From positions 14,114 through 78,113 of the forward strand of contig JAYPOZ010000005.1 in the NCBI GenBank assembly GCA_038131165.1: a stretch of 64,000 bases of DNA, given 5' to 3'. The position numbers were made by a program, and so were the translations under genes. A model generated the notes under the pieces. It was given only the letters and a program-made list of their open reading frames with translations. It made no database searches and was not told the DNA's origin. How positions within the stretch are numbered: the first letter of the stretch is position 1; each line of letters begins with the position of its first letter. This DNA comes from Rickettsiales bacterium (lineage in GTDB: Bacteria; Pseudomonadota; Alphaproteobacteria; UBA8366). This document shows positions 12,848 through 29,903 of the stretch, one piece after another.

Positions 12848-15127
12848 ATGAACGACGCAGCAATCCCCGGAAACGGCGAGTATAAGTGGGTCGGCAAACG
12901 GACGATCCGGCCGGATGGTGTGGACAAGGTGACGGGCCGGGCGGCCTACGGCGCCGATTTCAGCCTGCCGGGAATGCTCTATGGCGCGGTCCTGCGCAGC
13001 CCGCACGCCCATGCGCGGATCCTCAAGATCGACACCTCCAAGGCGGAGGCGCTGAAGGGGGTGAAGGCAGTGATCACCGCCGCCGACTGGCCGGAAATCC
13101 CGGCCTCGGAAGCGACCAAAGGCACCGCGCCGGTGAACTTCCAGCACCTGTCCGACAATCTTATGGCACGCAAGAAAGTGCTCTATGACGGCCACGGCGT
13201 GGCGGCGGTGGCGGCGACGTCGCTGGCGATCGCCAAGCGGGCGGCGAAATTGATCGAGGTCGAGTACGAGGTCCTGCCGCATGTCATCGATGTGCTTGAG
13301 GCGTCCAAACCGGATGCGCCGCTGCTGCATGATGATCTGTATACATCGGGGCTCGACGAGAAACCGGCGAAACCCTCGAACGTGGCCCGCAAGGTCGCCT
13401 TCGGCATCGGCGATATCGACGCCGGCTTCAAGGCGGCCGACGCCGTGATCGAGCGCGAGTATACGACGAAGCCGGTGCACCAAGGCTATATCGAGCCGAG
13501 CGCGTGTGTCGCGAACATGTCGGAAGACGGCACGTCGACGGTATGGTCGAGCAGCCAGGGCCAATACATGATTCGGCAATATTGCGCCGGATTGCTGGAG
13601 GTCCCGGCCTCGAACATCCGCGTCACGCCGGCGGAGATCGGCGGCGGTTTCGGCGGCAAGACGACCGTGTGGCTGGAGCCGCACGCGTTGTTGCTGTCGA
13701 AGAAGGCGGGCCATCCGGTCAAGATGACGATGACCCGCGACGAGGTTTTCCGTGCGTCCGGCCCGACCTCCGGTGCCTGGATGAAGATCAAGATCGGCGC
13801 CAAGAAGGACGGCACCATCGTCGCCGGTCAGGCCGAATACATGTTCCAGGCCGGAGCCTATGCGGGCTCTCCGGTCCAGCTCGCCTGCATGTGCGGTTTC
13901 ACGCCCTACGATATTCCGAACGTGGAGAGCATCGGCTACGACGTCGTGGTCAACCGGCCGAAAGCGACCGCTTACCGCGCGCCGGGTGCTCCGATCGGCG
14001 CCTATGGGATCGAGAGCGCCCTCGACGAGCTGGCGCGGGAGCTGAAGATCGACCCGATGGAAATGCGCCTGAAGAATGCGGCGAAACAGGGCACGAAGAC
14101 GTCTTACGGGCCGACCCTCGGCGTCGTCGGCAATATCGAGACGATGACCGCCGCCAAGGAGCATCCGCATTACAGCGCGCCGCTCGGCGAGAATCAGGGC
14201 CGCGGCGTGGCCTCCGGCTTCTGGTTCAATGTCGGCGGCGAGACCAGTGTCGCGGTCAGCCTGCTGGAGGACGGCACGGTGATGGTGACCTCGGGATCGC
14301 CGGATATCGGCGGCTCGCGCGCGTCGCTCTGCAGCATGGCCGCAGAGGTACTCGGCACCGACGTGAAGAACGTGAAGGCGATCATCGCCGACACCAGCTC
14401 GCTTGCCTATAACCGGCATACCGGCGGCAGCCGCGTCACCTTCGCGGCCGGCATCGTGGTGATCGAAGCGACCCGGGACATCGTCCAGCAGCTGCGCGAA
14501 CGCGCGGCGATGATCTGGGAAATCGATGTCGACGCCGTGGTCTGGGAAGAAGGCGAAGCCCGACCCGCCGGCCCCAACGCGGGCGAATTCGAACCCCTCA
14601 CGCTTGCGGATATCGCCGGCAAGACGATCGAGACCGGGGGCCCGATCGGCGCCCGCAGATCGAAAAACGTACAGGCGCCCGGCCCGGCGTTTGGAACCCA
14701 TATCGTCGATGTCGAGGTCGACAGGGAAACCGGCCATGTCAAAATCCTGCGCTACACGGCGGTGCAGGATGTCGGCAAGGCGGTCCATCCGAGTTACGTG
14801 GAAGGACAGATTCAGGGCGGGGCCGCGCAGGGTATCGGATGGGCGCTCAACGAGGAGTATATTTACGACGAAAAGGGGCGCATGGAGAATCCGGGCTTCC
14901 TCGACTATCGCATTCCCGTCGCGTCCGATCTGCCCATGATCGAAGCCGTGATGGTCGAAGTGGCGAATCCGACCCATCCGTTCGGCGTGCGGGGCGTGGG
15001 CGAGGTGCCGATCATTCCGCCGATGGCTGCGATCGCCAATGCCATCGAGGACGCCATCGGCGTTCGCATGAAGGACCTGCCGATGTCGCCGCCGAAGGTG
15101 CTCGCCGCCATCGACGCGGCCGGCTGA
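12848..15127 (+). CDS. xanthine dehydrogenase/CoxL-family molybdopterin-binding large subunit
   Basis: RSPHAHARI, QGYIEP, GGGFGGK, AYRAPG, VEGQIQGG, RGVGEVP. Confidence 0.92.
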   Translation: MNDAAIPGNGEYKWVGKRTIRPDGVDKVTGRAAYGADFSLPGMLYGAVLRSPHAHARILKIDTSKAEALKGVKAVITAADWPEIPASEATKGTAPVNFQHLSDNLMARKKVLYDGHGVAAVAATSLAIAKRAAKLIEVEYEVLPHVIDVLEASKPDAPLLHDDLYTSGLDEKPAKPSNVARKVAFGIGDIDAGFKAADAVIEREYTTKPVHQGYIEPSACVANMSEDGTSTVWSSSQGQYMIRQYCAGLLEVPASNIRVTPAEIGGGFGGKTTVWLEPHALLLSKKAGHPVKMTMTRDEVFRASGPTSGAWMKIKIGAKKDGTIVAGQAEYMFQAGAYAGSPVQLACMCGFTPYDIPNVESIGYDVVVNRPKATAYRAPGAPIGAYGIESALDELARELKIDPMEMRLKNAAKQGTKTSYGPTLGVVGNIETMTAAKEHPHYSAPLGENQGRGVASGFWFNVGGETSVAVSLLEDGTVMVTSGSPDIGGSRASLCSMAAEVLGTDVKNVKAIIADTSSLAYNRHTGGSRVTFAAGIVVIEATRDIVQQLRERAAMIWEIDVDAVVWEEGEARPAGPNAGEFEPLTLADIAGKTIETGGPIGARRSKNVQAPGPAFGTHIVDVEVDRETGHVKILRYTAVQDVGKAVHPSYVEGQIQGGAAQGIGWALNEEYIYDEKGRMENPGFLDYRIPVASDLPMIEAVMVEVANPTHPFGVRGVGEVPIIPPMAAIANAIEDAIGVRMKDLPMSPPKVLAAIDAAG

Positions 15128-15142
15128 GCCGGACGCTCGAAC

Positions 15143-15391
15143 GTGGCAACGGTCATATTGAACCGGGAGATCGCCCGGCAGTTCACCGACGGCGCGACGG
15201 AGATCGATGTCGTATCGGACAACATCCGGGCCGTCATCCGCGAACTCGATGCACGGTTTCCGGGCGTCGGTGCCGTGTTGCGGCACGATATGGCCGTCGC
15301 CATCGACGGCGAGATTTATCAGGATGTCCTCCTCGAGCCGGTCGGACCGAACAGCGAGGTCGCGTTCATCCCGGCCATCGAAGGCGGATAA
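15143..15391 (+). CDS. MoaD/ThiS family ubiquitin-like sulfur carrier
   Basis: 82 aa beta-grasp-like sequence, VAIDG, C-terminal IEGG. Confidence 0.85.
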   Translation: MATVILNREIARQFTDGATEIDVVSDNIRAVIRELDARFPGVGAVLRHDMAVAIDGEIYQDVLLEPVGPNSEVAFIPAIEGG

Positions 15392-15432
15392 CGCTCACAG
15401 GTGCCCCGGCGGGGGCGGAACGGAGACTTGCA

Positions 15433-16272
15433 TTGAAAATCGGCGTGATTTTTCCCGCCTCCGACAAGGGCATGCGGGTTCAGGAACTGGCTTGCGAATT
15501 AGAGGCGCGCGGCTTCGAATCGTTGTTCATCCCGGAACATACCCATATCCCGGTGAATACCGAGAAGACCTTCCGGGGCGGCACCGAACGGATGCCGAAA
15601 AGCTATGCGGAGATGATGGACCCGTTCGTCGCCTGCATGGCGGCGGCCGCGGTGACCGAACGCCTGACCGTCGGCACCGGGATTTGTCTGGTCCCGCAGC
15701 ACGACCCGATCGTGCTGGCAAAGACCGTTGCGACCCTGGACGTGCTGTCGGGCGGGCGCTTCGTCCTCGGCATGGGGGGCGGCTGGAACGTCGGCGAGAT
15801 GAACAATCACGGCGTGGCCTACGAGACCCGTTTCGAGCAGTTGCGCGAGCACGTGTTGGCCATGAAGGCGCTGTGGACCGAGGAAGAATCTGAGTTTCAC
15901 GGGAAATTCGTCGATTTCGGGCCGGTCTGGTGCTATCCGAAGCCGACCCAAAAGCCGCACCCGCCGCTGCTGCTCGGCGGCGAGACGGATCACACCCTGC
16001 GCCGGGTGGTCGAGTATTGCGACGGCTGGTTCCCGCGCCCCACGCACGGCTTCGATCCGGAAGACGGCATGGCGCGCCTGTGTCGGATCGCCGAGGAAGC
16101 CGGGCGCGACCCGGCCACCCTGTCCGTCACGGTCTTCCGCCTGCCGCACGAGAAAGACGAAATCGCGCGTTACGAGGCTGCCGGCATCGAGCGCGGATTG
16201 TTGCAGTTTCCCGGACTGAAACGGGATGAGATTCTGAAAAGCCTGGATACATTCGCGCCGCTGCTCGACTGA
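15433..16272 (+). CDS. LLM class (probably F420-dependent) oxidoreductase
   Basis: TTG start after GGAGA; PEHTHIP, DPFV, TLDVLSGGRFVLGMGGGWN; true CDS is the 3' part of track ORF 14839..16272. Confidence 0.88.
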   Translation: MKIGVIFPASDKGMRVQELACELEARGFESLFIPEHTHIPVNTEKTFRGGTERMPKSYAEMMDPFVACMAAAAVTERLTVGTGICLVPQHDPIVLAKTVATLDVLSGGRFVLGMGGGWNVGEMNNHGVAYETRFEQLREHVLAMKALWTEEESEFHGKFVDFGPVWCYPKPTQKPHPPLLLGGETDHTLRRVVEYCDGWFPRPTHGFDPEDGMARLCRIAEEAGRDPATLSVTVFRLPHEKDEIARYEAAGIERGLLQFPGLKRDEILKSLDTFAPLLD

Positions 16273-16316
16273 GCCGATGGCGGCGCACACCGCAATAAGA
16301 GAGAGGGAGAGACGAC

Positions 16317-17279
16317 ATGAAAGCCGCTGTCATTACGGAAAACGGTCTGGAATTGAAGGATGTCGATCGGCCGGAGCCGAAGGCGGGGGAAATCCTCGTC
16401 AAGGTGGCGGCGGCGGGCCTGAACCGGGCCGATCTGATGGCGCTGCAGGGCGCGCGCGGGTTCGCGGGCGGCGGTGTCGGCGGCCGCGAATGGGCGGGTG
16501 AAGTTGCCGCCTTGGGCGACGGTGTCACCGGCCTGCAGGTTGGCGACCGGGTCATGTGCACCGGCAATGGCGCCTATGCCGAATACGCCGTGACGGTGCC
16601 GGCGCGTGCCTGGAAGGTGCCCGGCAACAACATGAGCCTGGAACAGGCGGCGACGTTGCCGGTATCGCTGCAGACCATGCACAACGCGATCGTCACCGCA
16701 GGCCGTATGGAGAAGGGCGATGCGGTGCTGATTCAGGGCGCCAGCTCCGGGGTCGGTATTCTCGGCATGCAGATCGCCAAGCTCATGGGCGCGCGTCTCG
16801 TCATCGGCACCTCGACCCATGAAGGCCGCCGCGCCAAGCTGACCCAGTATGGCGCCGATATGGCGCTCGATTCGAAAAGCCCGGACTGGGCCGACAAGGT
16901 TCTGGAAGCGACGGACGGCAAGGGCGTCGATCTGATCGTCGACCAGGTCTCCGCCGGGGTAATGAACGACAATCTCAAGGCGACCCGGATTCTGGGCCGC
17001 ATCGTCAATGTCGGCCGGCTCGGCGGGTTCAAGGGCGAACTCGACTTCGACCTGCATGCGGCGCGGCGCATCGACTATATCGGCGTGACCTTCCGCACCC
17101 GCAGCGAAGAGGAAGTCGCCGAGATCATTCGCCTGATGAAGGCCGATCTTTGGGGAGCGGTCGAGGCCGGCGACCTGTCGATCCCGATCGACAAGGCCTT
17201 TCCGCTCGAGCAGGCCGCGGAAGCGCACCAGTACATGAAAGACAATCAGCATTTCGGGAAGATTTTGCTGACCGCGTGA
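16317..17279 (+). CDS. NADPH:quinone oxidoreductase (zeta-crystallin-like MDR)
   Basis: GLNRAD, QGASSGVG, HFGKILL; no Zn ligands. Confidence 0.88.
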   Translation: MKAAVITENGLELKDVDRPEPKAGEILVKVAAAGLNRADLMALQGARGFAGGGVGGREWAGEVAALGDGVTGLQVGDRVMCTGNGAYAEYAVTVPARAWKVPGNNMSLEQAATLPVSLQTMHNAIVTAGRMEKGDAVLIQGASSGVGILGMQIAKLMGARLVIGTSTHEGRRAKLTQYGADMALDSKSPDWADKVLEATDGKGVDLIVDQVSAGVMNDNLKATRILGRIVNVGRLGGFKGELDFDLHAARRIDYIGVTFRTRSEEEVAEIIRLMKADLWGAVEAGDLSIPIDKAFPLEQAAEAHQYMKDNQHFGKILLTA

Positions 17280-17325
17280 TCTTCCCGAACCGGACGAGAA
17301 GCGCGCAAGGCGACCGTTTCGGCGG

Positions 17326-18834
17326 CTATTTCGCTTGCTTGAGTTGCGCCTCCATCCGGTCGCAGAGCGTCCGGATGACTTTCAGCCGTGCGTAGTGCTT
17401 GTTGTTGGCTTCGACCAGCGTCCACGGGGCGGCGACGGTGCTGGTCCGTTCGACCATCTCGTCGACGGTGGCCTCGTAGGCGTCCCAATTATCGCGGTTG
17501 CGCCAATCTTCGTCGGTGAGCTTCCAACTCTTATAGGGTGTGTTCTTGCGTTCCAGGAAGCGCCGCTCCTGTTCTTCCGGGTCGATATGAAGCCAGAACT
17601 TCGCCAGCACGATTCCGTGCTCGGTGAGCTGCTCCTCGAAATCGTTGATCTCGGCGAAGGCGCGGCGGTAGGTGTCCTCCGAGATCAAGTGTTCCACGTG
17701 CTCGACCAGGACCCTGCCGTACCAGCTCCGGTCGAAGATCGTAAACCGGCCGCTGCGGGCGATATGCCGCCAGAAGCGCCACAGATAATGATGGGCGCGT
17801 TCCTCGTCGGTCGGCGCGGCGATCGGAATGACCCGGTAATCGCGGGCGTCGAGCGCCGCCGTCAGGCGCCGGATCGCGCCGCCCTTGCCGCCGGCGTCCC
17901 AGCCTTCGAACACGAGGACCGTCGACATCGACTGCTCCTTCGCTTGCCGATAGAGGCCGTGCAGCCGGGCCCGTAGCTTCCGCAATTCCTTGCCGTATTG
18001 CTTGCGCGAGATCTCCTTCGAGAGGTCCAGGCACGACAAGACGCTGGCCGTGTGGTTTTGAGCTATCGCCGACGCTGCAGGTTTCTTGCGCCGCCGCTTC
18101 GTTTGTTCCGCCGCCGCCCGGGTGCGCGCGTCGATGTGTTCGCTCACCGCTTTGTGCAGAGTGGTCAACACGGTGTGGGCGCGGTAGGGCGGGTCCGCGG
18201 CTTCGACCAGGCACCAGGGAGACGCGGCGGTGCTCGTCCGCATGATGATCCGCTCCGACGTTTCGATGAACTTCTCGTAGCGCTTCCAGTTGTCCCAATC
18301 CTGGGAGGTGATCTTCCAATGGTGATAGGGGTCCTTTTCGAGTTTCTTCAGCCTCTCCTTTTGCGCCTTCTTGTCGAGATGCATCCAGAACTTGAGGATC
18401 AGCGCGCCGTCATCGGCGAGCGTGCGCTCGAAACTTGCGATCCGCTCGAGCCGGGCGTCCAGTTTCGCCCGGCCGATCCGGCGGTAGACCCGGTCGAGCA
18501 GGGGGGCCGTGTACCAGGCGCTCTGAAACAGCCCGATTTGGCCGGCCGCGGGCAGGTCGCGCCAGTAGCGCCAGAACTCGGGCCGTTCCCGTTCTTCGTC
18601 CGAGGGCCGGACATAGGCGCGGGTGACGATCCAGCGCGGGTCCATCCACTCGTTCAGGAGGTTGACGGATTCGCTCTTTCCCGCGCCATCGACTCCGGCA
18701 AACAGGACGATAACGGGGAAATCGCTGCGCCGCAGCGCCTGCTGCATCTCGACCATCGCCAAACGCAGGTCCGGCGCGATGGCGTTGAATTCCGGCTTCG
18801 AAAGCTTGCGGCCAAGTTCGGCGGCTTCAAACAT
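17326..18834 (-). CDS. pap: polyphosphate:AMP phosphotransferase (two-domain PPK2)
   Basis: Two PPK2 domains (AGVDGAGK; FEGWDAGGKGGAIRR, FDRSWYGRVLVE); start MFEAAELG after AAGGAGG. Confidence 0.92.
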   Translation of the reverse strand: MFEAAELGRKLSKPEFNAIAPDLRLAMVEMQQALRRSDFPVIVLFAGVDGAGKSESVNLLNEWMDPRWIVTRAYVRPSDEERERPEFWRYWRDLPAAGQIGLFQSAWYTAPLLDRVYRRIGRAKLDARLERIASFERTLADDGALILKFWMHLDKKAQKERLKKLEKDPYHHWKITSQDWDNWKRYEKFIETSERIIMRTSTAASPWCLVEAADPPYRAHTVLTTLHKAVSEHIDARTRAAAEQTKRRRKKPAASAIAQNHTASVLSCLDLSKEISRKQYGKELRKLRARLHGLYRQAKEQSMSTVLVFEGWDAGGKGGAIRRLTAALDARDYRVIPIAAPTDEERAHHYLWRFWRHIARSGRFTIFDRSWYGRVLVEHVEHLISEDTYRRAFAEINDFEEQLTEHGIVLAKFWLHIDPEEQERRFLERKNTPYKSWKLTDEDWRNRDNWDAYEATVDEMVERTSTVAAPWTLVEANNKHYARLKVIRTLCDRMEAQLKQAK

Positions 18835-18938
18835 GACGGCCTCCTTAACTGAATCCTTTTCATCCCTATCGTGCCAATCGGAACCGAAGGCGGGAAGAGA
18901 CGGATCGTCACAGGGTGCCCGCCGGATCGTGGGAAGCC

Positions 18939-19940
18939 TCAGCCGATCCGCGCGGCGATTCGGCCCACCCGCTCGATGGTCTCCAGCATCGGCGCCTGAC
19001 CCATGCCGACCCAGCTCATCCGCAGGATAAACGTGTCGATTCCGAGCTCGTCGCGATAACGCAGGAATTCGTCGGCTACTTCCGCCTCGTCGCCGACGAT
19101 GAAGCGGTCGACCATAAAGTCGTCGAAGGCATCGGCGAACGTGCGGGCTTTCTCGCCGCTGCCTGCCGCCCCCCAGGAGGCGTAGGCCTTGTATTTGTCG
19201 AGCAGAGATGGCCGGCATACGTCCAGCGCCTCGGCCCGCGTGCCGCGCACGCAGCACTCGCGGGTGATCGGCATGCTTTCCGGCATCGGCAATCCTGCTT
19301 CGGTCCGGGCCGCGCGGAACATCTCTATGCATTTGGCGACGCGCCCGATACTGTCCGTCGGCGCCGCCATCCAGGCATCGCCGAGCCGCGCCGCGCGCGC
19401 CACCGCCGCCGGGACCTGACCGCCCAGCCAGATCGGCGGTCCCCCGGGGCGCTTCGGCTTGATGCTGGTGCCGAGCCCGTCGATATTGAAATACTTGCCG
19501 TGATGATCGACCCGGTCCTCGGTCCACAAGCGGCGAATGACCTCGATCCCTTCCTCGAGCCGGCCGACCCGTTGATTGAAGGGCACGCCGAGGGTCTCGA
19601 ACTCCTCCTTGCGGTAGCCCATGCCGACGCCGAGGGTGAAGTTGCCCCCGGTGATCCAGTCGAGCGTCGCGGCCTCCTCGGCGACGACGGCCGGGTTCAG
19701 CATGGAGAGCAGGATCACCGCGGTGCCGAAGGTCATCCCCTCGCCCTCCGCCGCGAGCCGCGCCAGCAGCGGCATGGTCTGCATCATCTGCATCGGCGCC
19801 ACCAGATAATGCTGGCCCATCCAGACGGAAGAGAAGCCGCTGTCGCGGGCCACCCGGACCTGCTCCATCATGTTGTCCATCTCGGACGAGATGTCCGCGC
19901 CCTCCGGCCATTGGGTCGAAATATAGAGCCCGAATTTCAT
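18939..19940 (-). CDS. LLM class flavin-dependent oxidoreductase
   Basis: MKFGL start, WMGQHY, VAEEAATLDWITGG, GVGMGYRKEEF, PPIWLGG. Confidence 0.88.
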   Translation of the reverse strand: MKFGLYISTQWPEGADISSEMDNMMEQVRVARDSGFSSVWMGQHYLVAPMQMMQTMPLLARLAAEGEGMTFGTAVILLSMLNPAVVAEEAATLDWITGGNFTLGVGMGYRKEEFETLGVPFNQRVGRLEEGIEVIRRLWTEDRVDHHGKYFNIDGLGTSIKPKRPGGPPIWLGGQVPAAVARAARLGDAWMAAPTDSIGRVAKCIEMFRAARTEAGLPMPESMPITRECCVRGTRAEALDVCRPSLLDKYKAYASWGAAGSGEKARTFADAFDDFMVDRFIVGDEAEVADEFLRYRDELGIDTFILRMSWVGMGQAPMLETIERVGRIAARIG

Positions 19941-20039
19941 CGTCTTTACTTCCTTTGTCTGCGCGCGGTTCTTTGACTCGATATAGACCGCGCCTTATGG
20001 TCGAGCCACAACCTAAATCCACTAGGGAGACAGGTCGCC

Positions 20040-20738
20040 ATGGCCGAGAAATTTCATCTGATCAGTTCCGTTACCTGACCCTGGGTCCAGCGCGCCGTGA
20101 TCGTGCTGCGTACCAAGGAAGTCGATTTCGACGTTACCTACATCAATCTGCAGGAAAAGCCGGATTGGTTTCTCAAGATCTCGCCGCACGGCAAGGTGCC
20201 GGTGCTGAATGTCGACGGCCAGCCGCTGTTCGAATCCAACGCCATCGCCGAGTATCTCGACGAGGTCGTCGAGCCGCGCCTGCATCCGGAAGACCCGATC
20301 AAGCGCGCGCGCAACCGGGCTTGGACGGATTTCGTGCCCGATTTTTCGAAAGGGCTGAGCGCCGCTTACCGGCGCGAGACCCTGGCGGAAATGGAAGCAG
20401 GCCGCGAAGACGCGCTTAAGGTTCTCGGCAAGCTCGAGGAGGCGATCAAGACCGAGCGCGGCAACGACGGACCGTTCTTCAACGGCGACAAGATTAGCCT
20501 GGTCGATGCGGCCTATGCGCCGTTCTTCCAGCGCTTCATGATCGCCGAGGAGAAGTTGCAGACCGGGTTGCTCGACGGATTTCCGCTGGTGAAGGCCTGG
20601 TGCGGAGCCTTGCTCGCGTCGGAATTGGTCACCGGTTCGGTCGCCGATAGTTTCGTGCCGGACTTCAAGGCGGCGATGAAACGTTACGGGTATCACATCG
20701 GCACCCTGTTCGAGCAGGAAGCCGCCGCGGCGGAATAG
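20040..20738 (+). CDS. glutathione S-transferase family protein, probable selenoprotein (Sec13, UGA 20076-20078)
   Basis: ATG 20040 after AGGGAGA reads MAEKFHLISSVT-UGA-PWVQRAVIVL in frame with track ORF 20097..20738; UGA occupies the Cys of the CP[FYW]xxR GST motif; SPHGKVPVL and FESNAIAEYLDE present. Confidence 0.85.
20080..20118 (+). promoter_or_regulatory. putative bacterial SECIS hairpin of the GST gene
   Basis: CAGCGCG (20088-20094) pairs with CGTGCTG (20102-20108) around loop CCGTGAT; lower stem CCTGGGT/ACCAAGG immediately 3' of the UGA. Confidence 0.55.
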
Positions 20739-20747
20739 CAGGCGTTC

Positions 20748-20792
20748 CTCATTCCCCAACCCGCTCCCCCGACGGGAGAGGGTTGGGGTGAG
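20748..20792. repeat. REP-like GC-rich hairpin between convergent genes (may act as terminator)
   Basis: CTCA..CCCCAACCC-G-CTCCC / GGGAG-A-GGGTTGGGG-TGAG; same family as 55605 and 57703. Confidence 0.7.
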
Positions 20793-20797
20793 AGTTT

Positions 20798-21349
20798 CTA
20801 GCTTATCTGCTTCGACCAGGCCGCCAAAGACGCCAGGAGGGCGGTCAGGCGTTCCCCGGTGTCGCTGTCCGTCAGTTTGCCCGAGTCGTCGAACAGCTTG
20901 CCGGCGCCGGGCAGGAACAACTCCGGCTTGTTGATCGGCCGCATGTCGAGGAACACCATCACCTGGCGCAGATGATATTGCGCCCGCATGGTGCCGGAGG
21001 TGCCGCCCGAACAGCCGAGCATTGCGACCGGCTTGCCGGTGAAGGGATGATCCGGCGGACGCGAAACCCAGTCGACGGCGTTCTTCAGCACGCCCGGGAT
21101 CGAATAATTGTACTCCGGCGTGGCGAACAGCAGCGCATCCGCCGACTTGATCTGGGTCCGAAGGGTTTCGACGGAGGCCGGAAATCCCTTTTGATAGATG
21201 TCGTCGTCGTAGACCGGAATACCGGAGATATCGGCGATCTCCACCGTGACCCCGTCCGGCGCGTGTTCCGCGGCGGCGCGGAGTGCCGCCATGTTGAGCG
21301 ACGCTTTTCGCAGGCTGCCGCAAATACCCAAGATTTTAGTGTCCGCCAT
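20798..21349 (-). CDS. NADPH-dependent FMN reductase (ChrR/SsuE-like flavodoxin fold)
   Basis: GSLRKASLN, ATPEYNYSIPGVLKNAVDWVSR, RAQYHLRQ. Confidence 0.92.
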   Translation of the reverse strand: MADTKILGICGSLRKASLNMAALRAAAEHAPDGVTVEIADISGIPVYDDDIYQKGFPASVETLRTQIKSADALLFATPEYNYSIPGVLKNAVDWVSRPPDHPFTGKPVAMLGCSGGTSGTMRAQYHLRQVMVFLDMRPINKPELFLPGAGKLFDDSGKLTDSDTGERLTALLASLAAWSKQIS

Positions 21350-21469
21350 ACGCGTGTCTCCCGTGCATGAGAATGTGTTGCCGAGACTCTAATCAGGTGG
21401 AAGCTGCATGGACAGTACCGGTCTTGCGAGATTTAATGGGAAAAATCACATTCATCGGGAGCCGCCTAC

Positions 21470-22306
21470 ATGGAAATCGGGGTCTTGTTCTTTGCCACCG
21501 ACTATTCGATCGATATCGCCGAACTCGCCGTCGAACTGGAGCAGCGGGGCTTCACGACCTTGCTGCAGCCGGAACACACGCATATTCCGGCGAGCCGCAA
21601 GACGCCGTGGGCCGGCGCCGGCGACCTGCCGCGCGAATACTACTGCACCTACGACCCCTTCGTGGCCCTTTCGTTTGCGGCGGCAGCGACGAAGACGCTG
21701 AAGATCGGTACCGGCATCTGTCTGGTGCCGCAACGCGATCCCATCGTCACCGCGAAGAACGTGGCCAGTATCGACAAGCTGTCGGGCGGGCGCTTCGTCT
21801 TTGGCATCGGCGGCGGATGGAACGTCGACGAGATGGAGAACCACGGGGTGCGGTACAAGACCCGCTTCAGGCAGATGCGGGAGAATATTCTCGCGATGAA
21901 GCAACTCTGGACCGAGGAGCAGGGCGAATTTCACGGCGAGTTCGTGAATTTCGATCCGGCGTTCTCCGACCCGAAGCCGACGCAGAAACCGCACCCGCCG
22001 ATCCTGCTCGGCGGCGAATCGGACCATACCCTGAAGCGGGTCGTCGAGTATTGCGACGGCTGGTTGCCGCGCGGGCGCGGCGGCTTCGATCCCGTCGAGG
22101 CGAAGCAGCGTCTGACCGCGATGGCCGAGGGAGCGGGCCGGGACCCGGCGTCGCTCTCGCTTACGGTCTTCGGCGCCCCCGCCGACCGGGCCGAGCTCGA
22201 CAAATACCGGGCCGCCGGGATCGACGGCGCCTTGCTGCGGATGCCGACGGAAGACCGCGACAGCTGCATGAAGTTGCTCGAGGAATTCACGCCGCTGGTC
22301 AACTGA
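21470..22306 (+). CDS. LLM class (probably F420-dependent) oxidoreductase, paralog of 15433..16272
   Basis: PEHTHIPASR, YDPFVAL, DKLSGGRFVFGIGGGWN, PHPPILLGG. Confidence 0.9.
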   Translation: MEIGVLFFATDYSIDIAELAVELEQRGFTTLLQPEHTHIPASRKTPWAGAGDLPREYYCTYDPFVALSFAAAATKTLKIGTGICLVPQRDPIVTAKNVASIDKLSGGRFVFGIGGGWNVDEMENHGVRYKTRFRQMRENILAMKQLWTEEQGEFHGEFVNFDPAFSDPKPTQKPHPPILLGGESDHTLKRVVEYCDGWLPRGRGGFDPVEAKQRLTAMAEGAGRDPASLSLTVFGAPADRAELDKYRAAGIDGALLRMPTEDRDSCMKLLEEFTPLVN

Positions 22307-22316
22307 GGTTAGAGTC

Positions 22317-23018
22317 ATGGCAGACGCCGCGCAGCTGGATCGAAGCTATCATTTCATTCTCGGATTCATCGTCGAGAATGGAGTGGCCCCGCATTACACC
22401 GAGCTGGCGCGGGAATTCGGGGTCTCTCCCGCCGAAGGGCGTGAACTGCTGCATGAGCTCATGTCGCAGGCCCTGCCCAACTGGCTTCATCCCGGAACCG
22501 ACCTGATCGCCTCCTTCGCGCCTTTCAACAACCTGCCGACGCATTATCGGGTCACCGTCGACGGGGAGCGGAAATGGTATGCGCAATGCGGTCTCGAGGC
22601 GACCGCGATTTCCTGGCTGTTTCCGGGCAAGACCGTGGAGATCGAAGCGCCATGCCTGCAGTCGGGCGCCGAAATGCGGGTCGTCTTCCGGGACGGCGTG
22701 CTGGAGGATACGGCGCCGGAAGGCATCCATTTCTACGTCACCCAGCCGATCAAAAAGTGGCATAACGATATGCCGTTTGCCTGAGCGAACATGAACCTCT
22801 TTCGGTCGAAAGAGGATGCCTTGAAGTGGTCGGGGTTCGTTGCGGGAACGGAGGCCGGCGTGCTGAGCCTGGCGCAGGCGGCCGCGGTGATGAGCACGCC
22901 GCGTCACAGCGCGCGGCTCAACGGCAGCTACGTCTCGTCGCGCCCGGACTTCACGCCGCGCTTCGTCGAAAAGCTGATGGAGGTCACCGGCGGTTCGCAA
23001 TATTGGGACCCGCGCTGA
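22317..23018 (+). CDS. MerB (organomercurial lyase)-like protein, probable selenoprotein (Sec156, UGA 22782-22784)
   Basis: Track ORFs 22317..22784 and 22791..23018 are in the same frame (TGA GCG AAC ATG); motifs WYAQCGLEA, APCLQSG and FA-U-ANMNLFRS parallel MerB WCALD, HCAATG and FCCHVHFFAS; SECIS-like hairpin follows. Confidence 0.82.
22796..22815 (+). promoter_or_regulatory. putative bacterial SECIS hairpin of the MerB-like gene
   Basis: CCTCTTTC-GGTC-GAAAGAGG, a perfect 8-bp stem with GGUC loop beginning 11 nt after the UGA. Confidence 0.75.
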
Positions 23019-23033
23019 ACGGGTTCCGCCAGT

Positions 23034-23087
23034 TTCCTTCCAGGATACGAACTTCACGAAGTTCTTAATTTCGTATCCTGGAAGGAA
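23034..23087. repeat. 18-bp perfect inverted repeat with nested alternative hairpin
   Basis: TTCCTTCCAGGATACGAA (23034-23051) / TTCGTATCCTGGAAGGAA (23070-23087); inner GAACTTC-AC-GAAGTTC. Confidence 0.8.
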
Positions 23088-23104
23088 TTTAAGGGAGAGG
23101 GGCC

Positions 23105-24553
23105 ATGGCGATCACGCATTTTTCAAAGGTGGACTGGATCGTCGTTTGGGACGAGGGCCGACAGGGCCATGCGTATCTGACGGGCGGCGATCTCGTCTTC
23201 GAGGGCAACACGGTCACCCATGTCGGCGCCGGCTACGACGGCCCCGCCGACACCGTGATCGCCGGCGCCGGGCTGTGCCTCCTGCCGGGTTTCGTCGACA
23301 TTCACGCGCACCCGGCGACCGAGGTATTCTACCGCGGACTGCGCGAGGATCACAGCGTTCCCGAACATTACATGAGCGGTTTGTACGAGCGGTCCTGCGC
23401 CTATTCGGCGCATATCGACCGGGACCTGCTGCCTTACGGAGCGGAGGTTTCCTATGCGGAACTGATGCTGAGCGGCGTGACCACGCTGGTCGACATCACG
23501 GCCCCCTATCCGGGCTGGATCGACGTGATGGCGCGCTCCGGCCTTCGGATGTACGCGGCGCCCACCTTCGAGACCTCGCGCTGGACCCGCGACAACGTCC
23601 ATCAGCTGAAATTCATCGAGGACGTGCAAAAAGGCGAGCAGGGATTTGCCGCCGCGCTGGAGGTGATCGACGCGGCGCGCGCGCACCCGAGCGGCCGTCT
23701 CGACGGGATCGTCTCGCCGTCGACCATCGACAAGGTGACGCCTGACCTGCTGGTCGCCAGCCATGCGGAGGCGAAGAAGCGCGGACTGCCCTGGACGACC
23801 CACACCAGCCAATCGGTGCTGGAATTCAATATCATGGTGGAGCGCCACGGGATGACGCCGATCCAGTTCCTCGCCGAGCGCGGCCTGCTCGGCAAAGGGA
23901 CGATCCTCGGCCATGCGATTCTGCCGGACGACAGTTCCTGGATCGGCTGGCACAGCCGCACCGATGTGGCATTGCTCGGCGACAGCGGCACCGCCGTGGC
24001 GCATTGCCCGACCCCGTTCATGCGGTACGGCACGGTCATGGAAAGCTTCGGTCGCTATCGCGACGCCGGCGTTGTGCTCGGCATCGGCACCGACACGATC
24101 CCCCATAATTTCATCGAAGACATGCGCTCGGCGGCGATCCTGGGCCGGGTCGCGGCGCACAGCGGGAAAACAGCCTCGACAGGCGATGTGTTTCATGCCG
24201 GCACGGCGGGCGGCGCCAAGGCCTTGATGCGCGACGATATCGGCCGCCTCGCGGTCGGATCGAAAGCCGATATCGTGGTCGTGGACTGCACCCACCCGAT
24301 GATGCTGCCGTCGCGCGATCCGCTGGCCTGCCTGATCCATTCGGCCGCCGACCGCGCGGTCAAGGACGTGTATATCGACGGCCGGCAGGTGGTGAAGGAC
24401 CGACAGGTGCTGACGCTCGACCGTCAGGCGGCGGCGGAGCGCATTGTCGCGGGACAGGTGCGGATGGAGGCGGCGGTTGCGGGAACCGATTTCTTGGGGC
24501 GCTCAAGCCGAGAGATCGCGCCGCTGTCGCTGCCGCCGGCGGGCGTAGGCTAG
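23105..24553 (+). CDS. metal-dependent amidohydrolase (AtzA/SsnA-like deaminase/chlorohydrolase)
   Basis: PGFVDIHAH, TTHTSQS, ILGH, VAHCP, GIGTD, GSKADIV. Confidence 0.9.
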   Translation: MAITHFSKVDWIVVWDEGRQGHAYLTGGDLVFEGNTVTHVGAGYDGPADTVIAGAGLCLLPGFVDIHAHPATEVFYRGLREDHSVPEHYMSGLYERSCAYSAHIDRDLLPYGAEVSYAELMLSGVTTLVDITAPYPGWIDVMARSGLRMYAAPTFETSRWTRDNVHQLKFIEDVQKGEQGFAAALEVIDAARAHPSGRLDGIVSPSTIDKVTPDLLVASHAEAKKRGLPWTTHTSQSVLEFNIMVERHGMTPIQFLAERGLLGKGTILGHAILPDDSSWIGWHSRTDVALLGDSGTAVAHCPTPFMRYGTVMESFGRYRDAGVVLGIGTDTIPHNFIEDMRSAAILGRVAAHSGKTASTGDVFHAGTAGGAKALMRDDIGRLAVGSKADIVVVDCTHPMMLPSRDPLACLIHSAADRAVKDVYIDGRQVVKDRQVLTLDRQAAAERIVAGQVRMEAAVAGTDFLGRSSREIAPLSLPPAGVG

Positions 24554-24625: not shown

Positions 24626-25888
24626 ATGAATGAATTCCCGAACGGAGAGAGCGAAAGCGAGCGGATGAAGCTCCGCGCCGAGAACGCCGAACTGCGCCAG
24701 CGGATTGCCGATCTGGAAGCGCGTTTGGCGTCGTCGTCGGCGAGCCGGGAGAGCGGGGAGGAGAGCGCACAGAAACAGCTCGCCTTTCTGCAGACGCTGA
24801 TCGATGTGGTGCCGGTGCCGATTTTCTATAAGGACGCGACCCATCGCTATCTGGGCTGCAACTCCGCTTTCGAGGTTTTCCTGGGCCGCAGCAAGGCGGA
24901 GATTGTCTACCATGGTGTCGAGGATGTTGCCCCCGGCGATTTGGCGGCGGTCTACCGGGCGGCGGATACGGCGTTGCTGGAGCGCGGCGGCACGCAGGTT
25001 TACGAAACGCAGGTCAGCGATGCCAATGGCGAGCGGCGCGACGTGGTCTTTCACAAGGCCGTTTTCGACGGCGAAGATGGGCGCTCGGCCGGCTTGATCG
25101 GCATCATTCTGGACATTACCGATCACAAACGCTTCGAGCGCGAGCTCAAGCTTTCGAAAGAGCGGGTTGAGTTCGCCAATCGCAGCATGACCGAGTTTCT
25201 CGCCAATATGAGCCACGAGTTGCGCACGCCGCTGAATTCCATCATCGGGTTTTCGGACGTAATGAGGACCGAGACTTTCGGTCCGATCGCGCAGCCGCAG
25301 TATCGCGAGTATGTCGGCAATATTCACGCGTCGGGCACTCATCTTTTGGCATTGATCAGTGAAATTCTGGACGTCTCGAAGATCGAAGCCGGAGAACTCG
25401 TGTTGGATGTCGGCCCGGTCGATGTGCCGCAATTGGCGGTATTCTGTCTCGATATGGTGCGGGAGCGGGCCGAGCGGGCGGAATTGCAGGTGACTTCGGA
25501 AATCGATCCGGTGCTTCAAACGATTCAGGCCGACGGGCTGAGGGTGAAGCAGATTTTGCTCAATCTCCTTTCGAACGCCATTAAGTTTACGCCCGGTGGC
25601 GGCGCGGTCGTCCTGCGGATCGAGCCGGAGCAAGGCAATCGCATCCGCTTCACGGTCAGCGACAGCGGCATCGGCATTCCCGAAGACGAGCTGGCGCGCG
25701 TGGTGCAACCCTTCGTGCAAGGATCGACGAATCCGTCGCATCGCCAGATGGGCAGCGGTCTCGGGCTTAGCCTCGCGCGGTCGCTGAGCGAACTCCACGG
25801 CGGCACGTTGGAAATCGACAGTACCGTTGGCGAAGGCACAAAGGTCACGGTTCGACTGCCGCGCGATCAGCGCTCTGCGCGCGGCTGA
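24626..25888 (+). CDS. soluble PAS-domain sensor histidine kinase
   Basis: Coiled coil, PAS (PIFYKD...YLGCN), FLANMSHELRTPL, NLLSNAIKFT, DSGIGI, GSGLGL. Confidence 0.93.
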   Translation: MNEFPNGESESERMKLRAENAELRQRIADLEARLASSSASRESGEESAQKQLAFLQTLIDVVPVPIFYKDATHRYLGCNSAFEVFLGRSKAEIVYHGVEDVAPGDLAAVYRAADTALLERGGTQVYETQVSDANGERRDVVFHKAVFDGEDGRSAGLIGIILDITDHKRFERELKLSKERVEFANRSMTEFLANMSHELRTPLNSIIGFSDVMRTETFGPIAQPQYREYVGNIHASGTHLLALISEILDVSKIEAGELVLDVGPVDVPQLAVFCLDMVRERAERAELQVTSEIDPVLQTIQADGLRVKQILLNLLSNAIKFTPGGGAVVLRIEPEQGNRIRFTVSDSGIGIPEDELARVVQPFVQGSTNPSHRQMGSGLGLSLARSLSELHGGTLEIDSTVGEGTKVTVRLPRDQRSARG

Positions 25889-25996
25889 GAAGGTGCGCGC
25901 GCGCTAGATTGGCGCCGGCCTCCCCGTCGCCCTAGATGTCTATCAGGAAGGGGCCGCCATGCGCGGTCTTGTTTGGGCATTTGCAGGAGGGTCGCC

Positions 25997-26374
25997 ATGC
26001 GCGTCGTCACGTTGAAGGATATTCCGGAAATCGATCTTGGAGAGGCCGTGCCGGTCCCTGGTTGGACCGGCGGCGAAGTGCGCCGCTCGCGGCAGAACAT
26101 TATCGAGCCGGGCGACTCCGAGAATTACAATTGCAGCGTCGTCAATTTCACCAAGGGCTCGACCACCGGCTGGCACGTTCACGACTGCGACCAGATCCTC
26201 GTGGTGGTGCATGGCTCGGGGATCGTCGCCACCGAGACGGAAGAGCGCGAGATCAACGTCGGCGACGTCGTTCACGTCAAGGCGGGCGAGAATCACTGGC
26301 ACGGCGCCAAGGCCGATACGGTGATGGGGCATATCACCGTGACCCTGCGCGGCAGCAAAGCCGTCTTCGCCTAA
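25997..26374 (+). CDS. cupin domain protein
   Basis: TGWHVHDCDQILVV...GDVV...ENHWHGA; AGGAGG RBS before ATG 25997. Confidence 0.87.
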   Translation: MRVVTLKDIPEIDLGEAVPVPGWTGGEVRRSRQNIIEPGDSENYNCSVVNFTKGSTTGWHVHDCDQILVVVHGSGIVATETEEREINVGDVVHVKAGENHWHGAKADTVMGHITVTLRGSKAVFA

Positions 26375-26385
26375 GGGCCGCAAGG

Positions 26386-27303
26386 ATGAAAGCCGGCGTC
26401 AATCTGATCAACTTCGGCCCTTCGGCCAATCCCGTGAACCTGCGCCGCTGGGTGCGCGTCGTCGAAGGGTTGGGGTTTCACTCGCTGCTGACCTCGGACC
26501 ATATCGCGGTGACGCCCGATGTCTCTTCGCGCTATCCGGCGCCGCTCTACGAGCCGATCAGCACCCTCGGCTGGCTGGCGGGTATTACCGACAGGATCGA
26601 GATCGGCACCACGGTCATCATCGTGCCGTATCGCAGCCCGCTGGAGACCGCCCGGGCGCTGGCCAATATCGACCAGCTCAGCGGCGGGCGCCTCATCTTC
26701 GGCGTCGGCGTCGGCTGGGCGCAGGAGGAATTCGCGGCACTCGGGCTCGACTACCGCAAGCGCGGCGCGATGACCGACGAGTATCTGGCCGCGATCAAGC
26801 AGTTGTGGACGGAGGACGTAGCCAGCTTCGAGGGCGCCTACGTGCGTTACAGCGGCGTCGATACGGCGCCGCGCCCGGTGCGCCAACCGCACCCGCCGAT
26901 CTGGGTCGGCGGCTCGAGCGACGCCGCGCTGCGCCGCGCCATCCGGCTCGGCGACGCCTGGCACCCGATCCGCATCCGCGAAGAGGGACTGCGCAAGGAG
27001 GGCATTCCCCGACTGCAGGCATTGGCGGCGGAAGAGGGCCTGCCGGTGCCGGCGCTCTGTCCGCGCATCCGGTTGCGCCTGCTGGAGACGCCGGCGGACG
27101 ACGCGACCCGGGTGATGGGCGAAGGCACCGCCGATCAGGTGCACCGCGATCTTGCCGCGCTCGAGGAGATGGGCTGCGCGCATGTCCTGCTGGACACCTA
27201 TTTCGAGGACATCGAAGCGACCCGCAATGTCGAGGCGTCGTGGCGCATGCTGGCGACGGTGGCTGAGCGGATGCTGGACCTCGACGGCGAGTGCGTGCGC
27301 TAG
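26386..27303 (+). CDS. LLM class (probably F420-dependent) oxidoreductase
   Basis: LTSDHIAV, DQLSGGRLIFGVGVGW, PHPPIWVGG; start MKAGVNL. Confidence 0.88.
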   Translation: MKAGVNLINFGPSANPVNLRRWVRVVEGLGFHSLLTSDHIAVTPDVSSRYPAPLYEPISTLGWLAGITDRIEIGTTVIIVPYRSPLETARALANIDQLSGGRLIFGVGVGWAQEEFAALGLDYRKRGAMTDEYLAAIKQLWTEDVASFEGAYVRYSGVDTAPRPVRQPHPPIWVGGSSDAALRRAIRLGDAWHPIRIREEGLRKEGIPRLQALAAEEGLPVPALCPRIRLRLLETPADDATRVMGEGTADQVHRDLAALEEMGCAHVLLDTYFEDIEATRNVEASWRMLATVAERMLDLDGECVR

Positions 27304-28364
27304 GGAAATACCCGTTCGGCGCGGAAGTGATCGAACAGGCGGAAGAACATTTCCTCCGAATCGACGAAGTCCCGGAACCCGTAAAGGCGGGCTTTCGTCG
27401 TCGAGGAGACGATATCCCAATGCGGCGTCCAAAGGTGCTTCCAGTACGACCAGAGCGCCACCTGATCCAGCGGTTGGCGCACCAGACCGTGCTTCTCGAC
27501 GACCCGCTGCCAGACCGGCTCCATATCCGCCATGTGCCGCGCCAAATCGACGGTCTGCACCGGCCCGACCTCCATATCGAAGTAGTCGGCAAATTTCGGC
27601 CACAGATTGGCCCAGCGGAAGGTGTCGCCATTGGTGACGTTGAAGTCCTGGTTGGCGCATTTCGGCTCCGTCGCCATCCAGACGGTCGCCTTGGCGAGAT
27701 GCAGGGCCTCCGTGCACTGATAGAGCGCGTGGTAGTTGCCCTCGGTCCCGGGGAAGCGGAGCGGCAGCCCCAGCTCCTTCGAGATCGCCGCATAGGCGCA
27801 GATCAGGCTGATCATGCTGCGGGTGATGCCCGGCGCGGTATCGCAGAGCCCGGTCGGCCGCGCGGTCGACCAGGACCATGCCTTCCCGGTCTGAAGGGCG
27901 CGGATATAGTCTTCCTGCTGATAGTAGAAACTGGGCTGCAGGGTGCGCGGCGTGTCCTCGCGGGCCGGCGTCGGCGCCGGGCCCAACTGCAACCCGTAAT
28001 TCTTATGGCCGCTGCCGACATGAACATGCTTGAGGCGCGGCGCGATCGGCACCACCGTATCGACGACGTTGCGGAACATCGCGACGTTGGTTTCGATCGG
28101 CTCCGGCTGGCCTTCCGGGTGGTCGAAACGGGCCTCGTAGAAGATATGGGTGACGTCGCTGAGACCGCCGAGCCGCTTGCGGCTGTCCGCCGCGTCCGTC
28201 AGGTCGACCGCGATCCGGGGCACATCGCTGCCGCCGATCGGCTCCCGGCGGGAGAGGCCGACGACCTCCCAATCATCGAGGCCGTGCAGGTATTCGGCGA
28301 GCCGCCGCCCGACGACGCCCGAGGCGCCGACAACCAGCGCTTTCTTGAGTTCCCGATCCGTCAT
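27300..28364 (-). CDS. SDR family oxidoreductase (PRISE / progesterone 5-beta-reductase-like)
   Basis: VGASGVVG, GLSRR, GHKNYG, FYYQQED, LRFPG, FNVTNGD. Confidence 0.85.
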   Translation of the reverse strand: MTDRELKKALVVGASGVVGRRLAEYLHGLDDWEVVGLSRREPIGGSDVPRIAVDLTDAADSRKRLGGLSDVTHIFYEARFDHPEGQPEPIETNVAMFRNVVDTVVPIAPRLKHVHVGSGHKNYGLQLGPAPTPAREDTPRTLQPSFYYQQEDYIRALQTGKAWSWSTARPTGLCDTAPGITRSMISLICAYAAISKELGLPLRFPGTEGNYHALYQCTEALHLAKATVWMATEPKCANQDFNVTNGDTFRWANLWPKFADYFDMEVGPVQTVDLARHMADMEPVWQRVVEKHGLVRQPLDQVALWSYWKHLWTPHWDIVSSTTKARLYGFRDFVDSEEMFFRLFDHFRAERVFP

Positions 28365-28497
28365 GTGCCGCCGATCTCCTCAGATTTGCTTCGGAACTGA
28401 TCTAGTGTGCCGATGCGCGGCGGCGAAACCCAAGGCGGATGGTTGCATTGCGTCACCCGCTTGGTAACGTCGGCGGCGATCATGAGCGGAGGCGGCG

Positions 28498-29817: not shown

Positions 29818-29903
29818 AATCCGGCCGCGGCGAGGCATCTCTTGCCCGGTCTCCGCCGAGGGCATACGGTTCCGGGGCCCACTGTTTAACCCAAAATTCT
29901 CCC

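Follow-up and report, generated by a model that had tools for sequence, protein, structure and literature searches.

SaoL (NF040728) is described in the preprint by Haft and Gwadz as a MerB-like selenoprotein with a CU motif (Cys followed by selenocysteine) that marks a nine-gene SAO locus in anaerobes. A second kind of selenoprotein, resembling glutathione S-transferase (GST), has been listed since the Sargasso Sea study (Zhang et al. 2005) and then in the Global Ocean Sampling (GOS) study (Zhang and Gladyshev 2008). Here we analyze a 64,000-nt stretch of contig JAYPOZ010000005.1 (the window, at its full length), in which a MerB-like gene and a GST-like gene, each with an in-frame TGA codon, lie among two luciferase-like (LLM class) oxidoreductase genes (LLM1 and LLM2), an NAD(P)H-dependent flavin mononucleotide (FMN) reductase gene, and an amidohydrolase gene. 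A first-pass annotation had read the six genes as a dedicated selenium-dependent pathway. We find that the two are genuine selenoprotein genes of unrelated, widespread families, and consider it probable that their position side by side with four neighbors is a genus-level arrangement and not a conserved functional module. The lasting value of the analysis lies in recognizing, in addition to SaoL, another family of MerB-fold selenoproteins, which is large and, so far as we found, apparently undescribed.

All coordinates are positions in the window, and family calls come from Pfam and NCBIfam profile scans (NCBIfam release June 2026); open reading frames (ORFs) were listed both with and without TGA read-through. 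The ORF listing and the family scans agree on the six genes, and their places and arrangement are as first annotated (Table 1). The parent assembly (G000) comprises 4.82 Mb in 253 contigs and is 95.7% complete, with the window on its contig C5.

Both in-frame TGA codons encode selenocysteine

We find that both in-frame TGAs are true selenocysteine (Sec) codons, decoded by the SelA, SelB, SelD, and tRNA-Sec of the same genome. The selA (590.5 bits) and selB (459.9 bits) genes are adjacent on contig C1 and selD (319.3 bits) is on contig C52, all three above their cut-offs, and a whole-genome ARAGORN search places a tRNA-Sec with anticodon tca on contig C57; the top Rfam tRNA-Sec matches that were re-read by ARAGORN (4/8) are tRNA-Ser. 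For the MerB-like protein, a scan of one genome per species returned 484 pattern matches, 455 of which encode a relative, and the best 80 loci were read. Throughout the 81 sequences compared (the window plus the best 80 of the 455 stretches), the codon in column 156 is TGA. The frame beyond it is open in all 80 loci and full length in 79, with one ending at a contig edge, and the C-terminal part past the TGA is ~40% identical to the window across loci. Fourteen distant full-length Cys homologues have an invariant Cys in the same column.

The GST-like protein starts MAEKFHLISSVTU-PWVQR, with Sec as residue 13. Searches of 40 relative genomes identify an orthologue with exactly one internal TGA in 18, 65-88% identical to the window protein, as well as three more distant paralogues with no internal stop. 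The TGA falls within a U-P-W-V-Q-R motif in the window and all 19 loci read, which together make up our 20 orthologues, and C-P-W-V-Q-R stands at the equivalent position in 12 full-length metagenome homologues. The retention of TGA in 20/20 GST-like and 81/81 MerB-like sequences bears out the initial proposal that UGA replaces catalytic Cys codons and does not reflect random nonsense mutation.

A hairpin lies shortly past each codon and would assist its decoding. In the MerB-like gene, the selenocysteine insertion sequence (SECIS), CUCUU(C/U)C-GGUC-G(G/A)AAGAG, starts at 16 nt, counted from the U of UGA. All 80 distinct sequences (the basis of all counts for this hairpin) form the six inner pairs, and 76 of them have a GGUC loop, matching the tetraloop of the E. 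coli fdhF SECIS. Three pairs show compensatory double changes: 21-28 (CG 70, UA 10), 22-27 (CG 74, GC 4, AU 2), and 16-33 (CG 59, UA 6). Compensatory change couples a synonymous Phe codon (UUU/UUC) to a Lys/Glu swap three codons on, so that the RNA structure shapes the protein motif LFRS(K/E)E. In the GST-like gene, the predicted hairpin lies 14 nt past the UGA, with stems at 15-19/32-36 and 21-22/27-28 counted from the U (19 distinct sequences), and the 36 nt after the UGA are nearly invariant, third codon positions included.

Contigs from four salt-marsh RNA libraries, which show no strand, level, or transcript ends and are not proof of transcription, span the GST TGA (X16 record 6 and X19 record 18) and the MerB-like TGA (X15 record 5). 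As they carry both codons unchanged, assembly error is ruled out. More broadly, it is extremely improbable that nonsense mutation, faulty assembly, or another genetic code accounts for the TGAs, leaving the genes broken or read differently. The truncation of both genes by standard gene calling would fit such an account, but TGA stands at an identical column in sequences from different assemblies (81/81 and 20/20), the frames beyond it are open and conserved, hairpins lie 3′ of the codons in a genome with Sec machinery, and the independent RNA-library contigs hold the same TGAs. A different code is further opposed by the LLM2 and MerB-like genes, which themselves end in TGA; TGA is therefore a normal stop elsewhere.

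The first-pass annotation also expected standard gene callers to miss the pathway because both key genes look broken, and homologue records are indeed mostly truncated. For the MerB-like protein, 106 of the best 120 database homologues listed are 153-156 amino acids (aa) long with the same end point, while most close database homologues of the GST-like protein are N-terminal truncations of 213-214 aa. Nine full-length JGI proteins (P0018, P0030, P0031, P0053, P0064, P0087, P0108, P0113, and P0121) have W at both Sec columns, probably from TGA read as Trp by other-code gene calling on short contigs, an artefact that hides two-Sec proteins. Mis-calling of both genes in public data is systematic: records give stumps of 155 aa and 213 aa, or place W at Sec sites, and correct gene models would repair hundreds of them.

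A genome scan for TGA plus hairpin gave 172 hits, which are mostly noise, miss the GST-like gene itself, and are no selenoproteome count. The scan suggests that the genome holds at least seven other selenoprotein genes, with candidates on contigs C15, C38, C63, C186, C45, C52, and C84; judging by their motifs, we presume four to be of U-G-S-C type, two to be redoxin-like with W-U-P-Y-C (one of them on the selD contig), and one to be ArsC/Spx-like with U-T-S-C.

Fold, active site, and possible roles

The MerB-like protein has the fold of MerB. A profile of its Cys homologues matches MerB2 (5c17) with E 1.7e-25, as well as MerB, and an AlphaFold2 model (mean confidence, pLDDT, 95.7) has as its only significant fold matches eleven MerB/MerB2 chains, the top 11. 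Hidden Markov model (HMM) alignment places Cys91 on Cys96 of MerB, Glu94 on Asp99, and Sec156 on Cys159. Glu94 and Cys113 are invariant (81/81), and the residue before Sec156 is A in 45, T in 18, S in 18, and Cys in none. Cys113 is probably the equivalent of the structural Cys117 of MerB. In most members, C-L-D-C follows an invariant Pro112 (columns 113-116), with Cys116 present in 73/81; column 116 is Ser/Thr in the window and 7 others, all alphaproteobacterial forms whose rows were read.

Column 91 is Sec in 56 of the 81 sequences and Cys in 25. The two-Sec members have a second SECIS-like hairpin after the first UGA, again with a GGUC loop, each pair of which is formed in at least 53/56, whereas the same columns are paired in only 9-23 of the 25 Cys91 forms. 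This split tracks taxonomy, with mostly aerobe-type lineages on one side and anaerobes on the other. By record titles, Cys91 forms come mostly from Alpha- and Betaproteobacteria, Methylomirabilota/Rokubacteria, Acidobacteriota, Nitrospinota, and Tectomicrobia, and two-Sec forms mostly from Desulfobacterota, plus one record each from Geobacter, Anaerolineae, Dehalococcoidia, and Cytophagales; the family also includes Burkholderiales and Chloroflexota, among others. Some Desulfobacterota carry 2-3 two-Sec paralogues: three in G126 and G139, two in G094, G110, G116, G117, and G130, and multiple copies also in G042 and G043.

The conserved site is most likely one in which a soft metal(loid) would be bound between Cys91 and Sec156 and a carbon-metal(loid) bond would be cleaved by protonolysis. 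We regard it as rather unlikely that the protein is instead no lyase but a metal(loid)- or selenium-binding or redox protein, working through a Cys-Sec selenenylsulfide or a Sec-Sec diselenide. Such a role would suit the general acid, which is Glu and not Asp in 81/81, the Sec at both metal-ligand positions in 56/81, and the genomic context: no neighbors are conserved across the 80 loci, the gene does not sit in a mer operon, and MerA stays under cut-off throughout the 95.7%-complete genome (best 383 bits against 454). Entry titles in the PDB include a "MerB mutant D99S" and a MerB2 form, and the Haft and Gwadz preprint reports that one change at the site turns MerB into a copper binder. Against a non-lyase role, the entire MerB fold is retained, the three active-site columns and structural Cys113 are kept in 81/81, and the proton-donor position is still acidic.

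Co-occurrence with the mercury methylation gene hgcA provides a further lead. HgcA is present in all five two-Sec carriers that we picked. In five genomes with the two-Sec form, a search for a true SaoL gives nothing above cut-off. In the class of one of these carriers, 24/106 genomes carry the family, always with two TGAs, and hgcA occurs in 24/24 carriers versus 47/82 non-carriers (one-sided Fisher p = 1.4e-5, with kin that are not independent). In the class with the Geobacter metagenome-assembled genome, the counts are 3/3 versus 90/148 (p = 0.23). Taken together, all 27 carriers in the two Desulfobacterota classes have hgcA; the whole comparison draws on loci L026-L101 and genomes G041-G045, G050-G142, G251, and G267. 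Carriers from three other phyla have none (0/3), the window's genome has no HgcA, and hgcA is not adjacent to the MerB-like gene where both are on one contig (e.g., ~49 kb apart in G094). The association is only a lead, because relatedness and the high background frequency of hgcA weaken these counts. We think it unlikely that this large, apparently undescribed selenoenzyme family cleaves carbon-metal(loid) bonds without mer or SAO and, in mercury-methylating Desulfobacterota, could underlie mer-independent methylmercury breakdown.

For the GST-like protein, the family profile aligns the Sec column with the Cys of C-P-F in omega-class GSTs (tCPWvqr on fCPFAQR of GSTO1), and the best matches among solved structures are Leishmania TDR1 and GSTO1. 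The C-P-F Cys of omega-class GSTs, which opens helix 1, is catalytic and forms a mixed disulfide with glutathione. Most simply, the window protein is the Sec version of a Cys-type, omega-like GST; it would most likely act as a glutathione-dependent thiol transferase or reductase, like omega, lambda, and DHAR-type GSTs, by way of a mixed Se-S(glutathione) intermediate.

Conservation of the six-gene arrangement

Searches with tblastn for the five partner proteins within 10 kb on each side of the 80 MerB-like loci recover the LLM2-MerB-like-amidohydrolase trio only at L022 and L024, both from the window's own genus, and all six genes at L024. At L023, from another genus of the same family, the GST-like and FMN reductase genes lie 8 kb from the MerB-like gene; two loci have one unrelated FMN-reductase or LLM match each, and the remaining 75/80 have nothing. 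Partner genes of the cluster proper are thereby limited to 3 loci, all from the window's own family, and are missing from 77/80. Clustering of flanking ORFs at the 80 loci reveals no family in more than five of them.

The relatives present a similar picture. The MerB-like gene occurs in 6/40 and the Sec-GST gene in 18/40; several near-complete relatives have the GST-like gene and no MerB-like match, and in G024 and G035 both are present on different contigs. The complete set of six is found together in a single further genome, G007, which belongs to the window's genus, and the same pieces lie on two short contigs in G006. Around the 18 GST loci of the relatives, LLM1 is adjacent and divergent at 6, FMN reductase is adjacent at 5, an LLM2 orthologue at 2, and none of the five partners at 11; no other GST neighbor is conserved beyond the genus and close kin. 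The LLM1-GST-FMN reductase order is also seen in G004, G005, and G012. In G004 (73% complete) it is followed by LLM2, with no MerB-like or amidohydrolase gene in the 14.7 kb examined and no MerB-like match genome-wide, so these two genes appear to have joined the arrangement later, within the genus. Beyond the family-level clade, neither selenoprotein gene is accompanied by any of the partners. With the full cluster confined to the genus and the genes occurring independently in relatives, the dedicated six-gene pathway of the first-pass annotation is not supported. That annotation had proposed gene-neighborhood conservation as a check, and across 40 relatives and 80 loci we obtain the outcome it had named in advance as speaking against the pathway: synteny is not conserved.

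Within the window, spacing makes it likely that LLM1, GST, FMN reductase, LLM2 with MerB-like, and amidohydrolase are each separate units. LLM1 and GST are divergent across a 99 bp gap, GST and FMN reductase are convergent across 59 bp with a shared hairpin, and FMN reductase and LLM2 are divergent across 120 bp; LLM2, MerB-like, and amidohydrolase are on one strand with gaps of 10 bp and 86 bp. Because they are convergent, the GST and FMN reductase genes are not co-transcribed. Their shared hairpin is possibly a two-way terminator; it is without a T run and was not called in a terminator scan. The 86-bp spacer that sets the amidohydrolase gene apart from the MerB-like gene is taken up by a palindrome of 54 bp. 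Allowing 3 mismatches at most, the palindrome arm has 16 matches in the genome, i.e., its 2 own arms and 14 elsewhere (1 on C5 as well, and 13 spread over 12 further contigs, with both arms on C95), and the palindrome looks like a member of a repetitive extragenic palindrome (REP)-like repeat family of this genome.

Table 1. Features of the six-gene region, in window coordinates (strand "." where neither applies)
Feature	Position	Strand	Evidence
LLM1, luciferase-like (LLM class) oxidoreductase, 333 aa	18939-19940	-	PF00296, E 2e-58
GST-like selenoprotein gene, omega-like, U-P-W motif, 232 aa, Sec13	20040-20738	+	GST_N_2, GST_N_3, GST_C_2
Sec codon TGA, GST-like gene	20076-20078	+	Kept in 20/20 orthologues
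Candidate SECIS hairpin, GST-like gene	20090-20111	+	Consensus fold
G+C-rich hairpin between convergent GST and FMN reductase genes	20754-20788	.	Read from intergenic sequence
NAD(P)H-dependent FMN reductase, 183 aa	20798-21349	-	PF03358, E 1e-45
LLM2, TIGR03619-family (F420-dependent LLM class) oxidoreductase, 278 aa	21470-22306	+	260.1 bits (cut-off 166.9)
MerB-like selenoprotein gene, 233 aa, Cys91-Glu94-Sec156	22317-23018	+	PF03243, 72.8 bits (cut-off 27)
Codons Cys91 (TGC) to Glu94 (GAG), equivalent to MerB Cys96...Asp99	22587-22598	+	HMM alignment to MerB chains
Sec codon TGA, MerB-like gene (residue 156), equivalent to MerB Cys159	22782-22784	+	Kept in 81/81
SECIS hairpin, MerB-like gene, 8-bp stem, GGUC loop	22796-22815	+	Folds and compensatory changes
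Palindrome, 54 bp, 18-bp arms, between MerB-like and amidohydrolase genes	23034-23087	.	Predicted hairpin, -38.7 kcal/mol
Amidohydrolase (chlorohydrolase/deaminase superfamily), 482 aa	23105-24553	+	PF01979, E 6e-30

All six genes are ordinary in appearance. The best NCBIfam match of LLM1 is TIGR03619 at 157.7 bits, slightly under the cut-off of 166.9; the FMN reductase has weak matches to SsuE, MsuE, and ArsH, all under cut-offs, and the amidohydrolase best matches the PRK06151 chlorohydrolase family (334 bits, under the cut-off of 416). With E ≤ 1e-10, PF00296 (LLM) has 88 matches in the 4.82-Mb genome, 7 of them on the window's contig, and five LLM genes fall within ~15 kb around the six-gene stretch. 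LLM adjacency is weak evidence in a genome so unusually rich in LLM genes.

Some observations weigh against the interpretation we prefer, that of two selenoprotein genes in a genus-level arrangement. LLM2 and the MerB-like gene are 10 bp apart, and their trio with the amidohydrolase gene recurs in two more genomes of the genus; a local functional link is possible, and at most LLM2 and the MerB-like gene may be co-transcribed here. Two selenoprotein genes 2.7 kb apart would also be somewhat improbable as a coincidence, with 0.05-0.12 such pairs expected, a figure that assumes 10-15 selenoprotein genes, itself a rough guess from the TGA and hairpin scan. On the side of the individual proteins, the predicted GST hairpin has no informative covariation (19 distinct sequences), because the sequence is near-invariant, and Glu for Asp together with Sec for Cys may shift the chemistry of the MerB-like protein away from that of MerB.

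A narrower, genus-restricted pathway also has to be weighed, in which the six genes would turn over organosulfur or organometal(loid) compounds in a selenium-dependent way, the LLM enzymes would be supplied by FMN reductase or by F420, and the GST-like and MerB-like proteins would handle thiol-reactive intermediates. We judge this distinctly improbable. The 10-bp spacing of LLM2 and the MerB-like gene speaks for it, as do the full cluster in G007, the pieces in G006, and LLM1-GST-FMN reductase in three more genomes; an FMN reductase beside an LLM gene is the usual two-component layout, and RNA-library contigs touch the GST, FMN reductase, LLM2, MerB-like, and amidohydrolase genes. However, the conservation is limited to close kin that share the arrangement by descent, G004 keeps four of the genes without the MerB-like and amidohydrolase genes, the convergence of GST and FMN reductase denies them a common transcript, a REP-like palindrome stands between MerB-like and amidohydrolase, and 88 LLM matches make LLM adjacency cheap. 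The RNA-library contigs leave most of LLM1 and parts of the amidohydrolase gene without cover and bridge only the convergent GST/FMN reductase junction, and are thus no evidence for or against co-transcription. We therefore retain the reading as a genus-level arrangement and advise against propagating the six-gene pathway as if it were a conserved system.

The window has a G+C content of 61-68%, and near-identical DNA (at least 47% of sampled words) is present in 14 estuary, salt-marsh, marsh, and marine metagenome runs. The MerB-like gene is the single MerB-fold gene of the genome. On either side of the six genes (12848-18852 and 24626-30872), Pfam families include a xanthine-dehydrogenase-type molybdopterin subunit, an LLM, a zinc-type alcohol dehydrogenase/quinone reductase, a two-domain PPK2, a PAS histidine kinase, a cupin, two further LLMs, a PRISE/epimerase-like reductase, and an ornithine cyclodeaminase-family gene.

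Comparison with described systems

The two-component LLM systems SsuD/SsuE and SfnG/MsuE likewise have an NAD(P)H:FMN reductase gene adjoining LLM genes. They differ from the genes described here in that the models for SsuD, SsuE, SfnG, and MsuE all score far under cut-off and LLM2 is of the F420-type subfamily. CofD, of F420 biosynthesis, is present in this alphaproteobacterial genome above its curated cut-off (G000:C58:4631-5539) with LLM genes on the same contig, which makes F420 use by LLM2 plausible.

Among solved structures, the GST-like protein comes nearest to the omega-class GSTs and their kin (human GSTO1, Leishmania TDR1, and the DHAR and lambda GSTs of plants; E 1e-32 to 1e-20), from which it differs in being bacterial, in having Sec for Cys, and in its motif, UPWVQR. 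The closest published counterpart is the GST-like selenoprotein family of the Sargasso and GOS studies, which likewise combines a COG0625/PF13409 GST fold with Sec. In Pfam, the window protein matches PF13409 best (E 1.3e-18), and one close homologue, 82% identical, is from a marine (Tara) data set. Compared by fold and Sec content, the two are likely the same family, and we treat the GST-like selenoprotein as an already listed family.

MerB itself (PDB 3f0o, 3f0p, and 5c17) shares its fold with the MerB-like protein (Foldseek E 5.6e-10, TM-score 0.57-0.66), but the window protein scores 26.4 bits against the cut-off of 193 for the MerB equivalog NF033555 and 22.4 against 200 for NF009710. The catalytic triad Cys96/Asp99/Cys159 of MerB corresponds to Cys or Sec/Glu/Sec in the family, with the positions kept and the residues differing.

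No NCBIfam model (June 2026) reaches its cut-off on the window protein or on the 37 members scanned, and in the passages found on MerB-like or alkylmercury-lyase selenoproteins SaoL is the sole one described. A "MerB-like" selenoprotein is attributed by two reviews to GOS 2008 and Peng 2016, where the words "MerB", "alkylmercury", and "lyase" are absent from the main texts; the window's MerB-like family may already be counted there. What emerges is a family with one or two Sec residues at metal-ligand positions that is widely spread, is tied to no operon, and is found among bacteria of estuaries and salt marshes as well as in many hgcA-carrying genomes. If its members do act on organomercurials or other organometal(loid)s, this would bear on the degradation of methylmercury and similar compounds in sediments, which has lacked candidate enzymes outside the mer system.

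SaoL remains the nearest described selenoprotein. It too has a PF03243 MerB fold, Sec at the position of MerB Cys159, and database products truncated at the UGA. The window's MerB-like family nevertheless fails every SaoL-defining feature that could be tested. The window protein scores 35.5 bits against the SaoL cut-off of 140, and all 37 members scanned match weakly (best E 2.4e-13). As the residue before Sec is always A, T, or S, the family is without the CU motif, and Cys precedes Sec in 0/81 sequences. The acidic residue is Glu, and in 56/81 members the Cys96 position is also occupied by Sec. In place of a nine-gene locus, the loci share no common neighbor family by the flanking-ORF clustering described above (Sao HMMs were not run on the flanks). 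Finally, SaoL is described from anaerobes, whereas the family reported here extends to Alphaproteobacteria, Burkholderiales, Methylomirabilota/Rokubacteria, Nitrospinota, and others.

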